Positions 49,705 to 62,929 of a DNA stretch of 64,000 nucleotides are shown piece by piece. A program made the translations under genes and the position numbers. Numbering within the stretch: the stretch's first letter is position 1; each line of letters begins with the position of its first letter. Source of the DNA: an uncultured Clostridia bacterium (lineage in GTDB: Bacteria > Bacillota > DTU025 > MWDF01); NCBI GenBank assembly GCA_964545975.1, contig CAZJHY010000001.1:24094-88093 (forward strand), written 5' to 3'. A model generated the notes under the pieces. That model saw only the letters and a program-made list of their open reading frames with translations. It searched no databases and was not told where the DNA came from.

Positions 49705-49732
49705 TTGCCGGTTGTCCGGTAGAGGAGCAAAA

Positions 49733-50020
49733 ATGGACAAGCGTACATTGATGATTAATGAGGAAGACAACGTTGCGACTGCTATGCAAAAGATCATGCC
49801 AGGAGACAAGCTGGACGGTTACGTCGCCCTTCAGGTGATACCGTTCGGGCACAAGGTTTCGGTAGTCCCGATTATGAAGGGAGAGCACATTATCAAATAT
49901 GGCGAAGTGATAGGGGTCGCCAGCGTCGATATAAGAGCTGGTGAACACGTGCATATTCACAACATGGATGGGATCAGGGGAAGAGGGGATGTTTACTCAG
50001 AACCGGGTCATAAGGAGTAG
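49733..50020 (+). CDS. SAF-domain small subunit of a split UxaA/GarD/SuyAB-family dehydratase/lyase
   Basis: The sequence INEEDNVATA ... IPFGHKV ... GEHIIKYGEVIG ... AGEHVHIHN matches the altronate-dehydratase N-terminal (SAF) module. Start is ATG 49733 after GAGGAG. Confidence 0.8.
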   Translation: MDKRTLMINEEDNVATAMQKIMPGDKLDGYVALQVIPFGHKVSVVPIMKGEHIIKYGEVIGVASVDIRAGEHVHIHNMDGIRGRGDVYSEPGHKE

Positions 50021-50023
50021 ACA

Positions 50024-51196
50024 ATGAATCAAAATACAAACCAGTTCATGGGGTACCTCAGGGAGAACGGCACAGTCGGCGTTAGGAACTACGTTTTAAT
50101 CCTACCTACCGTAGTTTGCGCCAATGCCACTGCAAGATCGATTGCTTCCATGGTGCCGGGCAGCACCGTTGTAACTCACCAGCACGGTTGTGCCCAGCTA
50201 GGAGCGGATTTTGCGCAGACACAAAGGACGCTTATTGGCTTAGGAAAGAACCCTAATGTCAGATCTGTACTTGTTGTGGGGCTCGGCTGCGAGAACATGG
50301 AAGGTGAGGTTGTCGCGGTTTCAATTGCAACAACTGGCAAGAAAGTAGAGCTCATCACCATACAGAAGCTTGGCGGCACATTGAAGGCAACCGAGCTGGG
50401 AGTTCGCATCGCATCTGAGATGATGCGATCAAAGTCAACCGACTTAAGGGTCCCAGTAGGAATAGAGAAGCTTACGCTCGCACTCGAGTGCGGGGCCTCT
50501 GATTCGACTTCGGGAATAACAGCTAACCCCGCAACCGGGATTGCTGTGGATATGCTTGTCGAAAAGGGAGGCTCAGCCATACTCTCAGAGACTCCGGAAA
50601 TGATAGGAGCGGAACACATTCTGGCCAAGAGATGCTTCTCGATAGTAGTTAAAGACGCCTTGTACGGTATTATCGGAGATGCTGAGAGGGGCATAAGTGG
50701 CATGGGCGTAGACGTTAGAGGCTCGAATCCGACACCTGGGAATATTGCAGGTGGCTTAAGCAGCATAGAGGAGAAGTCCCTTGGTTGCATCTACAAGGCT
50801 GGGTCTGGCAAGATAATGCAGGTAGTCAGATATGCCGAGACACCCACCGAGAAGGGTCTTGTTATAATGGACACACCAGGTCATGATGTAGAATCGATGA
50901 CAGGGATGGCTGCAGGTGGTGCTCAGGTTTGCGTTTTCACGACCGGCCTTGGCGCAGTAACAGGATTTCCTATAATGCCTGTCATCAAGGTATGCGGCAA
51001 TCCTAGGACAAGCGCCTTCATAAGCGATAACATTGATATCGACGCGGGCCAAGTGCTAGATGGCAAGGCTAGCCTCCAGCAGGTGGCGGAGCAGATTTTA
51101 TGCGAGGTCATGGAAGTCTCGTCGGGCAAAGCCACCAAGGCTGAGAGCCTCGGATATGCAGACATCGCGATTAACAGAATCGGCCCTACTACATGA
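50024..51196 (+). CDS. UxaA-family large subunit (altronate/galactarate dehydratase C-terminal or SuyB-like)
   Basis: Motifs GYLRENGTVGVRNYVLILPTV.CAN, HQHGC and GLGCE, typical of the UxaA C-terminal domain. It begins 3 nt after the small-subunit stop. Confidence 0.85.
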   Translation: MNQNTNQFMGYLRENGTVGVRNYVLILPTVVCANATARSIASMVPGSTVVTHQHGCAQLGADFAQTQRTLIGLGKNPNVRSVLVVGLGCENMEGEVVAVSIATTGKKVELITIQKLGGTLKATELGVRIASEMMRSKSTDLRVPVGIEKLTLALECGASDSTSGITANPATGIAVDMLVEKGGSAILSETPEMIGAEHILAKRCFSIVVKDALYGIIGDAERGISGMGVDVRGSNPTPGNIAGGLSSIEEKSLGCIYKAGSGKIMQVVRYAETPTEKGLVIMDTPGHDVESMTGMAAGGAQVCVFTTGLGAVTGFPIMPVIKVCGNPRTSAFISDNIDIDAGQVLDGKASLQQVAEQILCEVMEVSSGKATKAESLGYADIAINRIGPTT

Positions 51197-55143: not shown

Positions 55144-55362
55144 ATGATTGAGATAAGGGGCAGGGTTCCCCTCGAGAAGTACTCCGGTTTCTTACCAGTC
55201 TCTTCTGACACAAAGGTAAGGCAGCTCTTCGACATCCTCGGCATCCCCGAGGATCTCAGAGGTTACATACTTGCCATAAGAAACGGCAAGATAATCCAGC
55301 ACAGCGACATTGTTGCGGACGGAAGCGCAATCGATCTGATTATTATCCCCGAGGGCGGTTGA
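55144..55362 (+). CDS. ThiS/MoaD-like beta-grasp small protein ending in Gly-Gly
   Basis: 72 aa with a GAGGTGA ribosome-binding site. The C-terminus is ...ADGSAIDLIIIPEGG followed directly by the stop codon, which is the classic sulfur-carrier/ubiquitin-like terminus. Confidence 0.55.
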   Translation: MIEIRGRVPLEKYSGFLPVSSDTKVRQLFDILGIPEDLRGYILAIRNGKIIQHSDIVADGSAIDLIIIPEGG

Positions 55363-55496
55363 TCCTCGAAGGCATCCGAAAAACATGTGAAATGTGCCGC
55401 TGAAAAGGCGGCACATCTCTTATACCTGAAGGAATATGTCAACAGATGAAGAAACATACTCCGACGGGCCGACAGCCCGTAAAAGGAGTGAGGCAT

Positions 55497-57107
55497 ATGG
55501 CAATGAGGATGATCAAATTCCTCGCGGCGGCTATCCTTCTATCAATGCTAACCGGCGCAGCCGCCGGAGCGCCTGTTCCTGTGACGCCCCTGATAAACCT
55601 TCCGCCTTCTGTCCTTACTACGAAGATAACCAGCCTTGCCCTCTCAAACCTCATAACCATGGGCGATGTCGAGGGGACCACCTTCGGGGCATCAAGAAAC
55701 CAGATGGTGGCTCTTGACGCTGAGGGCAAGGTGACAAGGACCATAGCGATACCGATAGAGCAGCCCGCAGGCATATCGGCATATACGGCGGGCAAGGCGA
55801 TAGTGGGCGACGCTGGGACCGGCTCGGTTTTCTCGGTGGACGTCAGGTCAGGCCAGGCGATTAAGCTGCTGGACTTAAGGTCCACCCAAGCCGGAAGCCT
55901 GATTGCAGGCGATATCCTGAAAAGCGGCAGGCTTTCGAGCGTGGCATTCGACGGCAAATATGTATACGTGGCGATATCGGCAGGATACTCAAGCTCCATT
56001 TTCGCGGTCGACCCTGCGACCAACAGGGCGCTCATGCAGGCATGGTCGCCTGGAGACGAACCGACCGCCATGCAGTTCACGGCAGGAAACCTCTATGTGC
56101 TGGACGGGGCGAACGGACAGCTGAGGCTCTATGATTCCGCGTTCAAGCTAAGCATGCAGTCCATCGACCTTGCAGTACCCGATGCGAAAGGCATAGTCAT
56201 AAGGGGCAACGAAGTAAGGGTGCTCTCGCCTACGGAAAGGAGCATCACCCTTCTTAAGCCGGACCTGAACCTTCTCAAGATACAGCTGATAGAACCGGTC
56301 TGGCGGCCGATAGATGTGGTGATCGGCCCCATACTCACACTTGCGAGGCACTATGCCCTCCTTATCTGCGGCGATGTCGCCGAGAGCGGGTACGATGAGT
56401 TCTGGAACGACACCGTATGGATGTACAAGACGCTTCTTGACGCAGGGTACAAGGAGGACAATATTTATGTCCTCTATGGCTGGGGAAACGATTACATCTC
56501 AGCCAATCCAAACTACAAGCACGCCAGCAAGGTCACCGACTTCCCGGCTACAGTCGCATGGGTGAACAAAGTCCTGAACGGCTTGAAGAACGGAGACTCC
56601 TCCATAGGGGTCAACAAGCTGACGGCGAATGACAGCCTGTTCATTTGGGTGTTCGACCATGGAGGAGGGGGAAACCCCGCATACTTCTGCCTTAGAGACG
56701 GAGTGTATTACGATTCGGATTTCGCCAACAGCCTGAACCCCCTTCCTTACAGCAAGAGGGCGATTTTCATGCAGCAGTGCAGAAGCGGAGGCTTCCTGGA
56801 CAACATGCAGAATGACAGGAGCTTCGTGTCTACAGCCTGCCTTTGGAGCGAGAATGCGCACAGGTCAGATTCGGAGAATGAAACCTACGGAGGGAAAATA
56901 TACCATCACGGCGAGTACAATTACTATGTAATAAGCGCTTTGGCAGGCAAGACCGCGACTGGCGCCTCCGTGAACGCGGACAGCAACGGAGACGGCAAGA
57001 TAAGCGCCAGGGAGATGCACCAGTTCATGAGCGCCAGGGAGAATCAGCCCGAGACCCCGCAGATATGGGACAGCTTCGGAATAGGTAGCAGCTTCGCGGT
57101 GAAGTAA
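55497..57107 (+). CDS. Secreted beta-propeller-like domain fused to a legumain-like (peptidase C13, caspase-fold) cysteine peptidase
   Basis: It has a signal peptide (MAMRMIKFLAAAILLSMLTGAAAGA). The C-terminal half aligns by eye with legumain: RHYALLICGD, IWVFDHGG (catalytic His) and IFMQQCRSGGF (catalytic Cys). Near the C-terminus is an EF-hand/dockerin-like loop, DSNGDGKISAREM. The ORF opens at 55446. Confidence 0.75.
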   Translation: MAMRMIKFLAAAILLSMLTGAAAGAPVPVTPLINLPPSVLTTKITSLALSNLITMGDVEGTTFGASRNQMVALDAEGKVTRTIAIPIEQPAGISAYTAGKAIVGDAGTGSVFSVDVRSGQAIKLLDLRSTQAGSLIAGDILKSGRLSSVAFDGKYVYVAISAGYSSSIFAVDPATNRALMQAWSPGDEPTAMQFTAGNLYVLDGANGQLRLYDSAFKLSMQSIDLAVPDAKGIVIRGNEVRVLSPTERSITLLKPDLNLLKIQLIEPVWRPIDVVIGPILTLARHYALLICGDVAESGYDEFWNDTVWMYKTLLDAGYKEDNIYVLYGWGNDYISANPNYKHASKVTDFPATVAWVNKVLNGLKNGDSSIGVNKLTANDSLFIWVFDHGGGGNPAYFCLRDGVYYDSDFANSLNPLPYSKRAIFMQQCRSGGFLDNMQNDRSFVSTACLWSENAHRSDSENETYGGKIYHHGEYNYYVISALAGKTATGASVNADSNGDGKISAREMHQFMSARENQPETPQIWDSFGIGSSFAVK

Positions 57108-60395: not shown

Positions 60396-60438
60396 TTAAG
60401 GCGCTGCGGCGTAGGATGGGTTGCCTGCGGCGCCTTAA
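60396..60438. terminator. Hairpin between convergent genes
   Basis: TTAAGGCGC (60396-60404) pairs with GCGCCTTAA (60430-60438). The 3' arm includes the MFS stop codon. Confidence 0.45.
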
Positions 60439-61646
60439 AGCTGCTTGAAACCCCTGACCTTAAGAAGAAACAGCGAGGCTGACATTATTAGAAGCCCTGT
60501 CACGGCGGGGAAGTAGAACACGAGGTCCATATTCGCACGCGCCACAAGGCTGAAAAGTGCAAGGCTTATTGGAGACAGAAGCGATGTAATGAAATGTGTG
60601 AAAGCGGTCATCTTTCCCCTCATGTTGTCAGGGGTATGCGAAAGCAGGAGCACACCGGCGTTTATCGTTATGATGACCATCATGAAGCCAGAGACCACGC
60701 TAATAGCGTAGAACCACCAAAGTGTGGGGATCATTATCCAGGAGATAAGCGCTAATCCTATGCCTATGCCCGCAAGGACTATCATGGGCGAGCGCCTTCT
60801 GGGGTTCTTCATCGTACCCATCATCACAGACCCGGTAATGCTCCCGATGCTAAGAAACGTCATCACGAGCCCAAGCTCGGTAGCCGTCTTTCCCAGCCTG
60901 TCCTTAATGATGTACGGGACGGTCACGCTTGAAAGCGGCGCGAGGGCGAAGTTCATCAGGCCGAACACGAGCAGAATCCCGATTATGGTGGGAGTGCCGA
61001 AAGTGAAGTCCACGGCTTTCTTGAGGGCCTTCCAGCCATCTGCCTCGTTGTCTAAGGGCATGTATCCGCACCTTATGAACACCTCGGAGATTCCTGACAG
61101 CATCAGGGCGATAGCGTTCACCAGGAAAGCCGTCGCATAACCGAAGCTTGATACAAGCAGGCCACCGATGACAGGACCGAAGATGCCGACCATGCCGCCG
61201 AAGGCCTGCGTAACGCTTTGGGCTCTTTGCAGGTTCTCCACCCCGACGAGCTGGGGTATCAAGGCCGAGCATGCGGGGCTGAAGAAAGAGGAGATTATCC
61301 CGATCAGCACGCTTGACAGGACGACGTGCCAAATCCGAAGCCTGCCGTAAAAGGCGAGAAGGGCTATGGCTCCTATCACCGCCGCCCGGCAGAAGTCCAT
61401 GCTGTATACTATCCTCCTCCTGTCCAGCCTGTCGGCAAGCACTCCAAGGTAAGGGCCGAGCACGAGGGCGGGTATCATCGCCGCCATTGTCAGCAGCCCT
61501 GTGGTTCCGGGGGAGCCCGTTACGTTATAAAGCCACCAGATGAGGGCAACCTGGTGTATGCTGTCTCCGCAAAGCGAAGTGAAGTAACCTATGGCTAGCA
61601 GAGCGAAGTTCCTGTTGATAAGCGGATTGAAGCGCAAAGCATCCAC
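60435..61646 (-). CDS. MFS transporter (MFS_3/EntS-like)
   Basis: Twelve-transmembrane-like protein with the LADRLDRRRI loop. Confidence 0.85.
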   Translation of the reverse strand: MDALRFNPLINRNFALLAIGYFTSLCGDSIHQVALIWWLYNVTGSPGTTGLLTMAAMIPALVLGPYLGVLADRLDRRRIVYSMDFCRAAVIGAIALLAFYGRLRIWHVVLSSVLIGIISSFFSPACSALIPQLVGVENLQRAQSVTQAFGGMVGIFGPVIGGLLVSSFGYATAFLVNAIALMLSGISEVFIRCGYMPLDNEADGWKALKKAVDFTFGTPTIIGILLVFGLMNFALAPLSSVTVPYIIKDRLGKTATELGLVMTFLSIGSITGSVMMGTMKNPRRRSPMIVLAGIGIGLALISWIMIPTLWWFYAISVVSGFMMVIITINAGVLLLSHTPDNMRGKMTAFTHFITSLLSPISLALFSLVARANMDLVFYFPAVTGLLIMSASLFLLKVRGFKQL

Positions 61647-61726: not shown

Positions 61727-62929
61727 TCAAAGCTCCCTGTATCCCTTTATGGCGAGCATGCCCAATGTTATCGATAATATGAGAATCCCGCTTACGACCG
61801 GGTAGTAGAAGATCAGCCCTTCATTGGACTTGGCCGCAAGGCTGAAGAGCGACAGGCCTATTGGTGCCATGAACTGGGTTAACGAGTTCATGAAGGCGCT
61901 AAGTTTTCCCATCATCCGGTCCGGTGTGACCTGCACGAAGATTACTCCGGCGTTGATGTTTATGAGAGATGCGGCGAAACCCACAGCCGCGTTGATTACA
62001 TACAGCCACATGAGCTGCGGAAGAATCACCCATGAGGCTAAGAATCCGCCCATTACGACAGCGCCGGCTGTAATCAGGTTTGAGCGCCTCTTCGGGTTCT
62101 TGAGCACCCCCATAAGAAGCGAGCCTGCGATACCACCGACGCTTATCGCCGTCATTGAGAAGCCCAGCTCCGCTGATCCTGCTGCAAGTCTTGCCTTGAT
62201 GAGATATGGGAGAGTGAGCGAGCCGAGGTGCGAGACAGAGAAGTTCATCATTGCGAAAACGAGGAGGATTCCCATTATAGTGGGCATTCCAAGTGCGAAG
62301 CGCATCGCCTCGGCCATCTCTGCGAAATGGCCCCGCTTGGAAGCATGCACAGCCTGCTTATACTTTATGAACATCTCCGATACGGCAGACAGGACGAAGG
62401 AGATTGCGTTCATAAGGAACACCGCCGAATAGCCTATGGCCGCAACAAGCGCGCCGCCCAGAGCCGGGCCGATTATCCCGACCATACCCATCATCATCTG
62501 AAGCATGCCCTGCGCCTTCTGCAGCTTGTCCATGCCTACCAGGCCCGGGATCATAGCACTCACGGCGGGATTGAACAATGAGGAGCATGCGCTCACAAGC
62601 ACGCTTGATGCCACGAGGTGCCAAGTCCTCAGGCTCCCTGTGAAGGACAGGACCGCTACTGCCGCGATGACAGCCCCTCTTGCATAGTCCATCATGTACA
62701 CTATCTTGCGCCTGTCCCACCTGTCGGCAAGCACCCCCATGTAAGGGGAGAGAAGTATCGATGGTATCATGGATGCAAGGGACAGGAGTCCGGTGGTGGA
62801 GGGCGAACCGGTCACATTGTAGATCCACCAGATAAGGGCCACCCTATGGATGCCGTCGCCGATTGCGGAGACGAACTGCCCTATGGAAAGCAGGGCGAAA
62901 TCCCTATTGATTAGAGGGTTGACCGCCAT
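61727..62929 (-). CDS. MFS transporter (tandem paralog of the previous gene)
   Basis: Collinear with the neighbouring MFS protein over its whole length (NPLINR.FALL, VALIWW.YNVTGSP.TTGLL, LADR.DRR.IVY). Confidence 0.85.
   Translation of the reverse strand: MAVNPLINRDFALLSIGQFVSAIGDGIHRVALIWWIYNVTGSPSTTGLLSLASMIPSILLSPYMGVLADRWDRRKIVYMMDYARGAVIAAVAVLSFTGSLRTWHLVASSVLVSACSSLFNPAVSAMIPGLVGMDKLQKAQGMLQMMMGMVGIIGPALGGALVAAIGYSAVFLMNAISFVLSAVSEMFIKYKQAVHASKRGHFAEMAEAMRFALGMPTIMGILLVFAMMNFSVSHLGSLTLPYLIKARLAAGSAELGFSMTAISVGGIAGSLLMGVLKNPKRRSNLITAGAVVMGGFLASWVILPQLMWLYVINAAVGFAASLININAGVIFVQVTPDRMMGKLSAFMNSLTQFMAPIGLSLFSLAAKSNEGLIFYYPVVSGILILSITLGMLAIKGYREL

Follow-up and report, generated by a model that had tools for sequence, protein, structure and literature searches.

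A predicted exported C13 peptidase with an N-terminal five-bladed propeller and a calcium-type loop belongs to a conserved prokaryotic family

The window analyzed here, a stretch of 64,000 nucleotides from an uncultured Clostridia bacterium, contains an uninterrupted open reading frame on the + strand at 55446–57107 (ORF list). We preferred the ATG at 55497 over the one at 55446 because an AAGGAG sequence lies 8 nt upstream of it and because most homologues begin at the same Met; ATG 55497 is likely the true start. On the same two observations we rejected the longer product of 553 aa that begins at 55446, the start called for homologues P0001 and P0002. The initial annotation had placed the gene at 55497–57107, and we adopt that extent. 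The features we assign to the locus are as follows.

55483..55488, + strand: ribosome-binding site AAGGAG, 8 nt 5' of ATG 55497 (direct sequence reading)
55497..57107, + strand: coding sequence of the propeller–C13 peptidase, 536 aa, TAA stop counted in (ORF list)
55497..55571, + strand: predicted Sec-type signal peptide, residues 1–25 (from hydropathy, the model and homologue N termini)
55572..55613, + strand: Pro-rich, low-confidence tether, residues 26–39, PVPVTPLINLPPSV (pLDDT <50 at residues 22–35)
55614..56261, + strand: predicted five-bladed beta-propeller, residues 40–255 (∼20 strands in the model)
55980..56003, + strand: AGYSSSIF, the most conserved motif of the propeller, residues 162–169 (homologue alignment)
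56262..56348, + strand: inter-domain linker, residues 256–284 (pLDDT 55–69; variable alignment)
56349..57104, + strand: clan CD family C13 peptidase domain, residues 285–536, without a C-terminal LSAM-type prodomain (Pfam, model)
56658..56660, + strand: predicted catalytic His388 in D387-H388-G389 (aligned with legumain D147-H148-G149; invariant in 35/35)
56778..56780, + strand: predicted catalytic Cys428 in QQCRSGGF (aligned with legumain Cys189 in EACESGS; invariant in 35/35)
56979..57014, + strand: EF-hand-like, DxDxDG-type putative calcium loop DSNGDGKISARE, residues 495–506 (motif, conservation, model)

Predicting the structure was one of the checks proposed at the outset, and the AlphaFold model of the whole protein was confident (pLDDT 90.1, pTM 0.85), with a propeller followed by a caspase-fold peptidase domain. 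At the N terminus we recognized, by eye and by hydropathy, the parts of a signal peptide: a basic n-region (MAMRMIK), a hydrophobic core (FLAAAILLSMLT) and a c-region of small residues (GAAAGA). Kyte–Doolittle hydropathy peaked at 2.1 to 2.4 across residues 5 to 20, the model placed a helix at residues 2 to 23 followed by disorder and the Pro-rich tether, and an equivalent N terminus was present in all 35 aligned homologues. Inspection of the signal peptide revealed no lipobox Cys, and neither the sequence nor the model contained a hydrophobic segment or membrane anchor past it. In Bacteroidota, relatives from this peptidase subfamily have either CarboxypepD_reg in the place of the propeller or a T9SS sorting domain at the end of the protein, and the latter fits an extracellular role. 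We infer that the protein is exported via Sec.

The C-terminal half had been described as aligning block by block with eukaryotic legumain. In Pfam, Peptidase_C13 (PF01650) matched residues 285 to 470 at 36.2 bits (E 6.4e-9), well over its gathering threshold of 22.8, and the same model matched every one of the 35 aligned homologues (best E 1.9e-13). The HMM searches thus led to C13 and not to C11, C25 or C14, the different caspase-fold families named in the initial annotation: the matches listed for the protein at E ≤ 10 included none of these three, and in the family listings of the 35 aligned homologues C13 was the sole clan CD family. NCBIfam returned no meaningful match for the protein. 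When the single sequence was searched against the PDB, the matches were marginal (a dockerin at E 0.26 was the best, and a legumain followed at E 1.2), and a family profile was therefore needed. The peptidase region of that profile matched only legumains, asparaginyl endopeptidases and peptide asparaginyl ligases among PDB sequences, with FDHGG aligned with TNHGA and QQCRSGGF with EACNAGSM.

Structural comparison of the model pointed in the same direction. Foldseek returned legumain (E 1.2e-10, target TM 0.72) with GPI8 next, and the domain adopts a caspase-like alpha/beta fold whose nearest structural neighbors are C13 enzymes. The values in the structure comparison table were 25.2 for legumain (4aw9_A), 24.7 for OaAEP1, 22.3 for GPI8, 21.2 and 20.4 for metacaspases 9 and 4, respectively, about 16 for caspases and 13.7 for gingipain. 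The possibility that the catalytic domain is truly a metacaspase (C14B) mis-assigned to C13 is highly improbable, given that PF00656 was listed neither for the protein at E ≤ 10 nor in the family listings of the 35 members. The calcium loop is also positioned differently, and the accessory domains are different, in type II metacaspases (C14B; Arabidopsis MC4 and MC9).

We aligned the C-terminal domain of the family with human legumain using hhalign; the legumain sequence was checked against PDB entries. All four of the blocks originally proposed were reproduced by this profile alignment: ARHYALLICGD with GKHWVVIVAGS, LFIWVFDHGG with VFIYFTDHGS, RAIFMQQCRSGGF with KMVFYIEACESGS, and FVSTAC with VYATTA. 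By both HMMER and hhalign, D387-H388-G389 and C428 fell in register with legumain D147-H148-G149 and C189, so that the His and Cys first read from the sequence align exactly with the legumain dyad. His388, Gly389 and Cys428 were invariant in 35 of 35 sequences, as were Q426, Q427, G431, G432 and F433 around the catalytic Cys. On these profile and model data, we assign the C-terminal domain to family C13 of clan CD. It could be argued that the protein is a catalytically dead pseudo-protease with a binding or structural role only, because its divergent S1 pocket (described below) could mean decay and its activity is a prediction from sequence. Against this, the dyad residues, Gly389 and the motifs around them do not vary between phyla in a family whose overall identity is 40 to 45%, which indicates purifying selection on catalysis, and we regard a dead enzyme as extremely unlikely.

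Membership in C13 raised the matter of specificity. Arg44, His45, Ser216 and Asp231 make up the zwitterionic Asn/Asp S1 pocket of legumain, and across clan CD the preference for P1 charge is set by alpha1/L1, L4 and L5 (PMC4357240). In our alignments, Arg44 corresponds to a gap or, by helix register, to E301; His45 to F302 (invariant); Ser216 to A454 (34 of 35); and Asp231 to K467 (variable). Of the neighboring positions, legumain Glu187 corresponds to Q426 (invariant) and Glu190 to R429 (26 of 35). The alignment of the alpha1 loop is ambiguous, with R44 and H45 placed differently by HMMER and hhalign. All four Asn-specific residues of the legumain pocket are replaced. The third catalytic residue of legumain is Asn42. 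It aligned with E301 in hhalign and with G298 or Y299 in other registers of the ambiguous loop, positions at which no Asn is conserved. The C-terminal activation peptide and LSAM prodomain are also absent, since the protein stops at residue 536, directly past the last peptidase-fold elements of the model.

These data bear on whether the protein could be a functional legumain orthologue, cutting or joining peptides after Asn/Asp as asparaginyl endopeptidases and peptide asparaginyl ligases do. Legumains and plant peptide asparaginyl ligases are its best sequence and fold matches, and its D-H-G and Cys motifs coincide with those of legumain in the alignment; however, replacement of the four S1-specificity residues (as defined in PMC4357240), the lack of a conserved Asn42 within the limits of the ambiguous loop alignment, the missing LSAM prodomain and an identity to legumain of only ∼15% make this reading decidedly unlikely. 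Because the residues that define the pocket are replaced, we consider the protein a member of C13 that is not an asparaginyl endopeptidase of the legumain type; its specificity probably differs from the asparagine specificity of legumain. The original term "legumain" therefore holds for family membership, as defined by Pfam C13, but not for function, and with the Asn-specific S1 residues and LSAM both missing, an assay on Asn/Asp-P1 substrates may well be negative.

What the pocket might accept instead is suggested by its charge. Acidic residues predominate around it, the L5 loop is acid-rich with conserved acidic residues at D458, E460, E462 and E473, and the residue at the start of alpha1 is mostly acidic. 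Our best guess, and a weak one, is that the enzyme prefers a basic P1 residue (Arg/Lys), by analogy with metacaspases, paracaspase and gingipain. We hold this guess weakly because R429, beside the catalytic Cys, is itself basic, and because the alpha1 loop is ambiguous and, of the 85 homologues, 45 have Glu and 32 have Cys immediately ahead of the invariant FW.

For the N-terminal half, a YncE/NHL-like beta-propeller had been suggested from its strand-rich repeats. In the model, residues 40 to 255 form ∼20 strands that are arranged as five four-stranded blades, and the N-terminal strand at 41 to 45 appears to close blade 5. No Pfam propeller model was above threshold in the protein and there was no NHL match, while NHL was matched by 8 of the 35 members (best E 7e-4) and some members had sub-threshold NHL and PQQ_2 matches. 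A profile of the propeller domain searched against 1.84 billion representatives retrieved 2004 proteins at E ≤ 0.001, including standalone propellers of ∼228 to 260 aa and giant multi-repeat proteins, and the relatives that were sampled carry NHL, SGL, SdiA-regulated, YNCE-like, DUF6923 and Glu_cyclase_2 signatures. Since the NHL and YNCE matches occur in distant relatives, we place the relationship at the superfamily level only. The initial proposal of a YncE/NHL-like propeller thus holds for the superfamily. The blade count in the model is five, compared with six for NHL propellers and seven for YncE.

Propellers that resemble the domain include the five-bladed ones of bacterial/plant-type glutaminyl cyclase (3MBR, 3NOK) and of the YjiK/SdiA-regulated domain (3QQZ), as well as NHL-repeat propellers; the domain passes none of their Pfam thresholds. 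A bifunctional enzyme can be imagined in which the propeller is an active glutaminyl cyclase of the plant/bacterial type that would form pyroglutamate on N termini made by the peptidase. The likeness to glutaminyl cyclase is at the level of the fold, with no HMM support (the cyclase family model, PF05096, did not match the protein) and no cyclase signature found, and we judge this reading most improbable. The invariant residues of the propeller are mostly Gly, Ala and Ser, as in AGYSSSIF, and do not hint at a further active site. Most likely, the propeller is a domain that binds substrate or ligand, or a regulatory, prodomain-like one.

Near the C terminus, the site initially likened to an EF-hand or dockerin proved to be a calcium-type loop. 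The sequence DSNGDGKISAREM at residues 495 to 507 fits PROSITE PS00018, and the identical 13 residues in homologues P0006–P0008 match the pattern by regular expression. Among the 85 homologues, 22 contain the strict PS00018 pattern and 78 contain a loose version of it in the corresponding position, some of these being relatives made up of the C13 half alone; D495 is kept in 34 of 35 members and E506 in 35 of 35. The 12-residue loop resembles dockerin and DxDxDG loops, with canonical residues at its ligand positions (D1, N3, D5, G6, I8 and E12, or DxNxDGxIxxxE) and an exiting helix (504–513 in the model) that begins at loop position 10 (A504). An entering helix next to the loop is missing, as the preceding helix ends at 483 in the model, 11 residues ahead of the loop; the site is therefore a DxDxDG, F-hand-like or dockerin-type half-site. 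Dockerins have two calcium loops; here there is a single one, with no second loop found, and it lies inside the catalytic domain between the last two helices, where hhalign sets it opposite the acidic EDSDVEDLTKETLH segment of legumain. Among Pfam EF-hand models the best was EF-hand_5, below threshold at 18.6 versus 25.9 bits, and Dockerin_1 did not match the protein and matched just one of the 35 members (E 0.15). By its conservation and its position in the model, the loop belongs to the peptidase subfamily itself rather than being an EF-hand or dockerin module joined to it. It most likely binds Ca2+, which would stabilize or activate the domain.

The two halves are joined by a linker that varies in length and sequence and terminates in a conserved P-[RKQ]-[KRD] right before strand beta1; a Lys or Arg lies ≤3 residues from beta1 in 76 of 78 homologues. 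We found 85 homologues at E ≤ 0.001, with values down to 1.6e-41. The closest was 91% identical within this set and 92% identical in a GTDB scan, the latter from an uncultured Clostridia bacterium. Across GTDB species genomes, the full architecture was present in Bacillota/Clostridia MAGs, Methanothrix/Methanotrichaceae, Armatimonadota, Acidobacteriota/Holophagaceae, Aminicenantes and Bipolaricaulota, and the C13 half alone was matched in Bacteroidales, Cloacimonadota, Methanomassiliicoccales, WOR-3 and others. The propeller–C13 architecture is therefore a conserved trait of a prokaryotic family and not a one-off fusion. The initial annotation is largely borne out, and the domain combination that it singled out is real but not unique, and several homologue records are already named "C13 family peptidase", a label that is probably derived from Pfam.

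We examined gene neighborhoods by contig look-ups for the encoding loci and by an all-against-all comparison of the ORFs flanking 28 loci. Neighbors were shared only within one Bacillota lineage and comprised a ThiS-like ORF, PadR, GNAT, GGDEF and a MurJ/Polysacc_synt flippase; we rejected a functional link to them as ordinary synteny within that lineage. In relatives, a VanZ gene lies between the ThiS-like ORF and the peptidase. Neither the 28 loci nor the contig look-ups revealed an operon partner common to different phyla, and because neighbors are not shared across phyla the gene looks like a standalone unit. This distribution bears on a GPI8-like transamidase or sortase, an enzyme that would cleave exported proteins at a C-terminal sorting signal and link them to a cell-envelope acceptor while the propeller holds the acceptor or substrate. 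We consider such a role very unlikely: no partner or substrate gene is conserved alongside across phyla, no membrane anchor follows the signal peptide, and GPI8 was missing at E ≤ 1 from the profile-to-PDB search in which legumains and ligases were found. GPI8/PIGK, also a C13 enzyme, differs from the present protein in having a C-terminal membrane anchor and multi-subunit partners.

Taken together, we think it probable that the gene encodes a Sec-exported clan CD endopeptidase of family C13 with a five-bladed propeller, a probable Ca2+ loop and a non-asparaginyl P1 specificity. Removal of the signal peptide would leave an NHL-superfamily propeller joined by a flexible linker of ∼30 residues to a catalytic domain of legumain fold, in which the His388/Cys428 dyad would cut peptide bonds. 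Ca2+ bound by the DxNxDGxIxxxE loop would stabilize or activate the catalytic domain, and the propeller would bind a substrate or ligand or act as a regulator. F302, A454 and Q426, together with the acidic start of alpha1, take the place of legumain residues, and P1 might perhaps be Arg/Lys. A more specific possibility, which we regard as doubtful, is that the family represents a calcium-gated prokaryotic branch of C13 resembling metacaspases and gingipain. Acidic residues on alpha1 and L5 would then set a basic P1 specificity, autoprocessing at the conserved basic residue just ahead of beta1 would free the propeller as a prodomain or substrate selector, and gene exchange would have taken place between bacteria and Methanothrix archaea. 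Calcium control is known from metacaspases and clostripain.

Legumain, as represented in MEROPS family C13 by human LGMN (PDB 4AW9) and the plant VPEs and ligases, is eukaryotic, whereas the hosts of this protein are prokaryotes. In addition to its low identity to legumain and its lack of the four S1 residues and of LSAM, the protein adds an N-terminal five-bladed propeller and an embedded EF-hand-like loop. As judged from sequence and model, it differs from the characterized C13 enzymes in its accessory domain, its missing prodomain, its calcium-type loop and its altered S1 pocket. Bacterial C13 enzymes had been described as poorly characterized, and our search of the largely non-subscription literature found no characterized prokaryotic C13 enzyme, only eukaryotic work and general reviews. 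A 2015 review of clan CD notes C13 in Bacteria and Archaea and describes only eukaryotic enzymes (PMC4357240). In the literature searched, C13 biochemistry and structures come from eukaryotic legumains, plant ligases and GPI8, and prokaryotic members exist as database labels. The basic C13 peptidase annotation is already public, and our analysis overturns nothing and touches no major open question. Plant peptide ligases express poorly, and a bacterially expressible C13 scaffold, which this family might offer, would for that reason be of practical interest; if the calcium-gated reading holds true, it could come with a new ligation or cleavage specificity. Characterization of the enzyme could shed light on the evolution of specificity and regulation within clan CD's legumain branch and tell whether calcium control exists in C13.

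Translation of the peptidase could begin at either of two in-frame ATG codons. The upstream one, at 55446, would add 17 residues (55446-55496, + strand; MKKHTPTGRQPVKGVRH), and two cluster representatives, P0001 and P0002, carry this 17-residue N-terminal extension in their gene calls. We disfavored this start relative to 55497 on the basis of the ribosome-binding site and the majority of homologues.

A profile of the N-terminal propeller retrieved standalone single-propeller proteins of ∼226 to 260 aa (P0086, P0103, P0111, and P0118) as well as giant proteins of 2300 to 4400 aa (P0088 and P0095), with up to 24 matching stretches among the giants. Because the profile reaches both kinds of protein, we place the propeller within the NHL/YNCE propeller superfamily, in a branch that is large and for the most part unannotated.

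Two elements, one inside the C13 domain and one just before it, can be set against legumain. In hhalign, the EF-hand-like calcium loop (56979-57020, residues 495-508) lies opposite residues ∼239 to 253 of human legumain, a conserved, acidic segment (EDSDVEDLTKETLH); the acidic segment of the eukaryotic enzyme could be a degenerate remnant of a calcium loop, or vice versa. The second element directly precedes the first strand of the C13 domain (beta1):

56340-56351 (residues 282-285), P-[RKQ]-[KRD] motif, also present in homologues

A Lys or Arg falls within three residues of beta1 in 76 of 78 homologues, and the motif could represent an autoprocessing site, provided that the enzyme favors a basic P1 residue. 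Alternatively, the motif may simply be structural, since legumain too has a Lys-His at the matching position.

Three features of the surrounding window were annotated as follows:

55144-55362, + strand, ThiS-like ORF of 72 aa with a Gly-Gly C terminus
60435-61646 and 61727-62929, − strand, two tandem paralogous MFS_1/MFS_3 transporters of ∼400 aa each, downstream of the peptidase gene
49712-50020 and 50024-51196, + strand, altronate/galactarate dehydratase in two adjoining ORFs

The 72-aa ORF, which ends 134 nt before the peptidase gene, matches the ThiS family below threshold (20 bits versus 22.5 bits), and its product looks like a ubiquitin-like beta-grasp protein of the sulfur-carrier type. 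It is kept at six related Bacillota loci, with a VanZ gene between it and the peptidase gene at several of them; the version at L001 shares 47% identity and is likewise GG-terminated. No partner for it was evident nearby. The tandem transporter pair is also kept in the closest relatives. Of the dehydratase ORFs, the first (102 aa) encodes a SAF domain and the second (390 aa) encodes GD_AH_second and GD_AH_C; the arrangement reflects either an enzyme with split subunits or a gene that is frameshifted or fused. In one Acidobacteriota MAG and three relatives from Bacillota (L001, L009, L010, and L041), the 5 kb preceding the peptidase gene include a large P-type cation ATPase (Cation_ATPase_N, E1-E2_ATPase), which is absent from the 64-kb window; this proximity may be a coincidence involving a common gene family.

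Related C13 domains also occur in other architectures. Bacteroidales genome loci match only in the peptidase half (related loci, L029-L037), and in the metagenome proteins P0083 and P0084 the C13 domain comes first, with the N-terminal propeller replaced by downstream accessory domains (CarboxypepD_reg in one, FlgD_ig and a T9SS C-terminal sorting domain in the other). From these arrangements, the C13 catalytic module seems to pair with varied accessory domains. Full-length homologues (44-46% identity) were found in Methanothrix/Methanotrichaceae MAGs, which represent acetoclastic methanogens (L014, L016, L017, and L023), some of them longer at the C terminus by ∼40 to 60 aa. Because identity between methanogen and bacterial homologues is about the same as among bacterial phyla, the comparison suggests inter-domain transfer of the peptidase gene within anaerobic communities.
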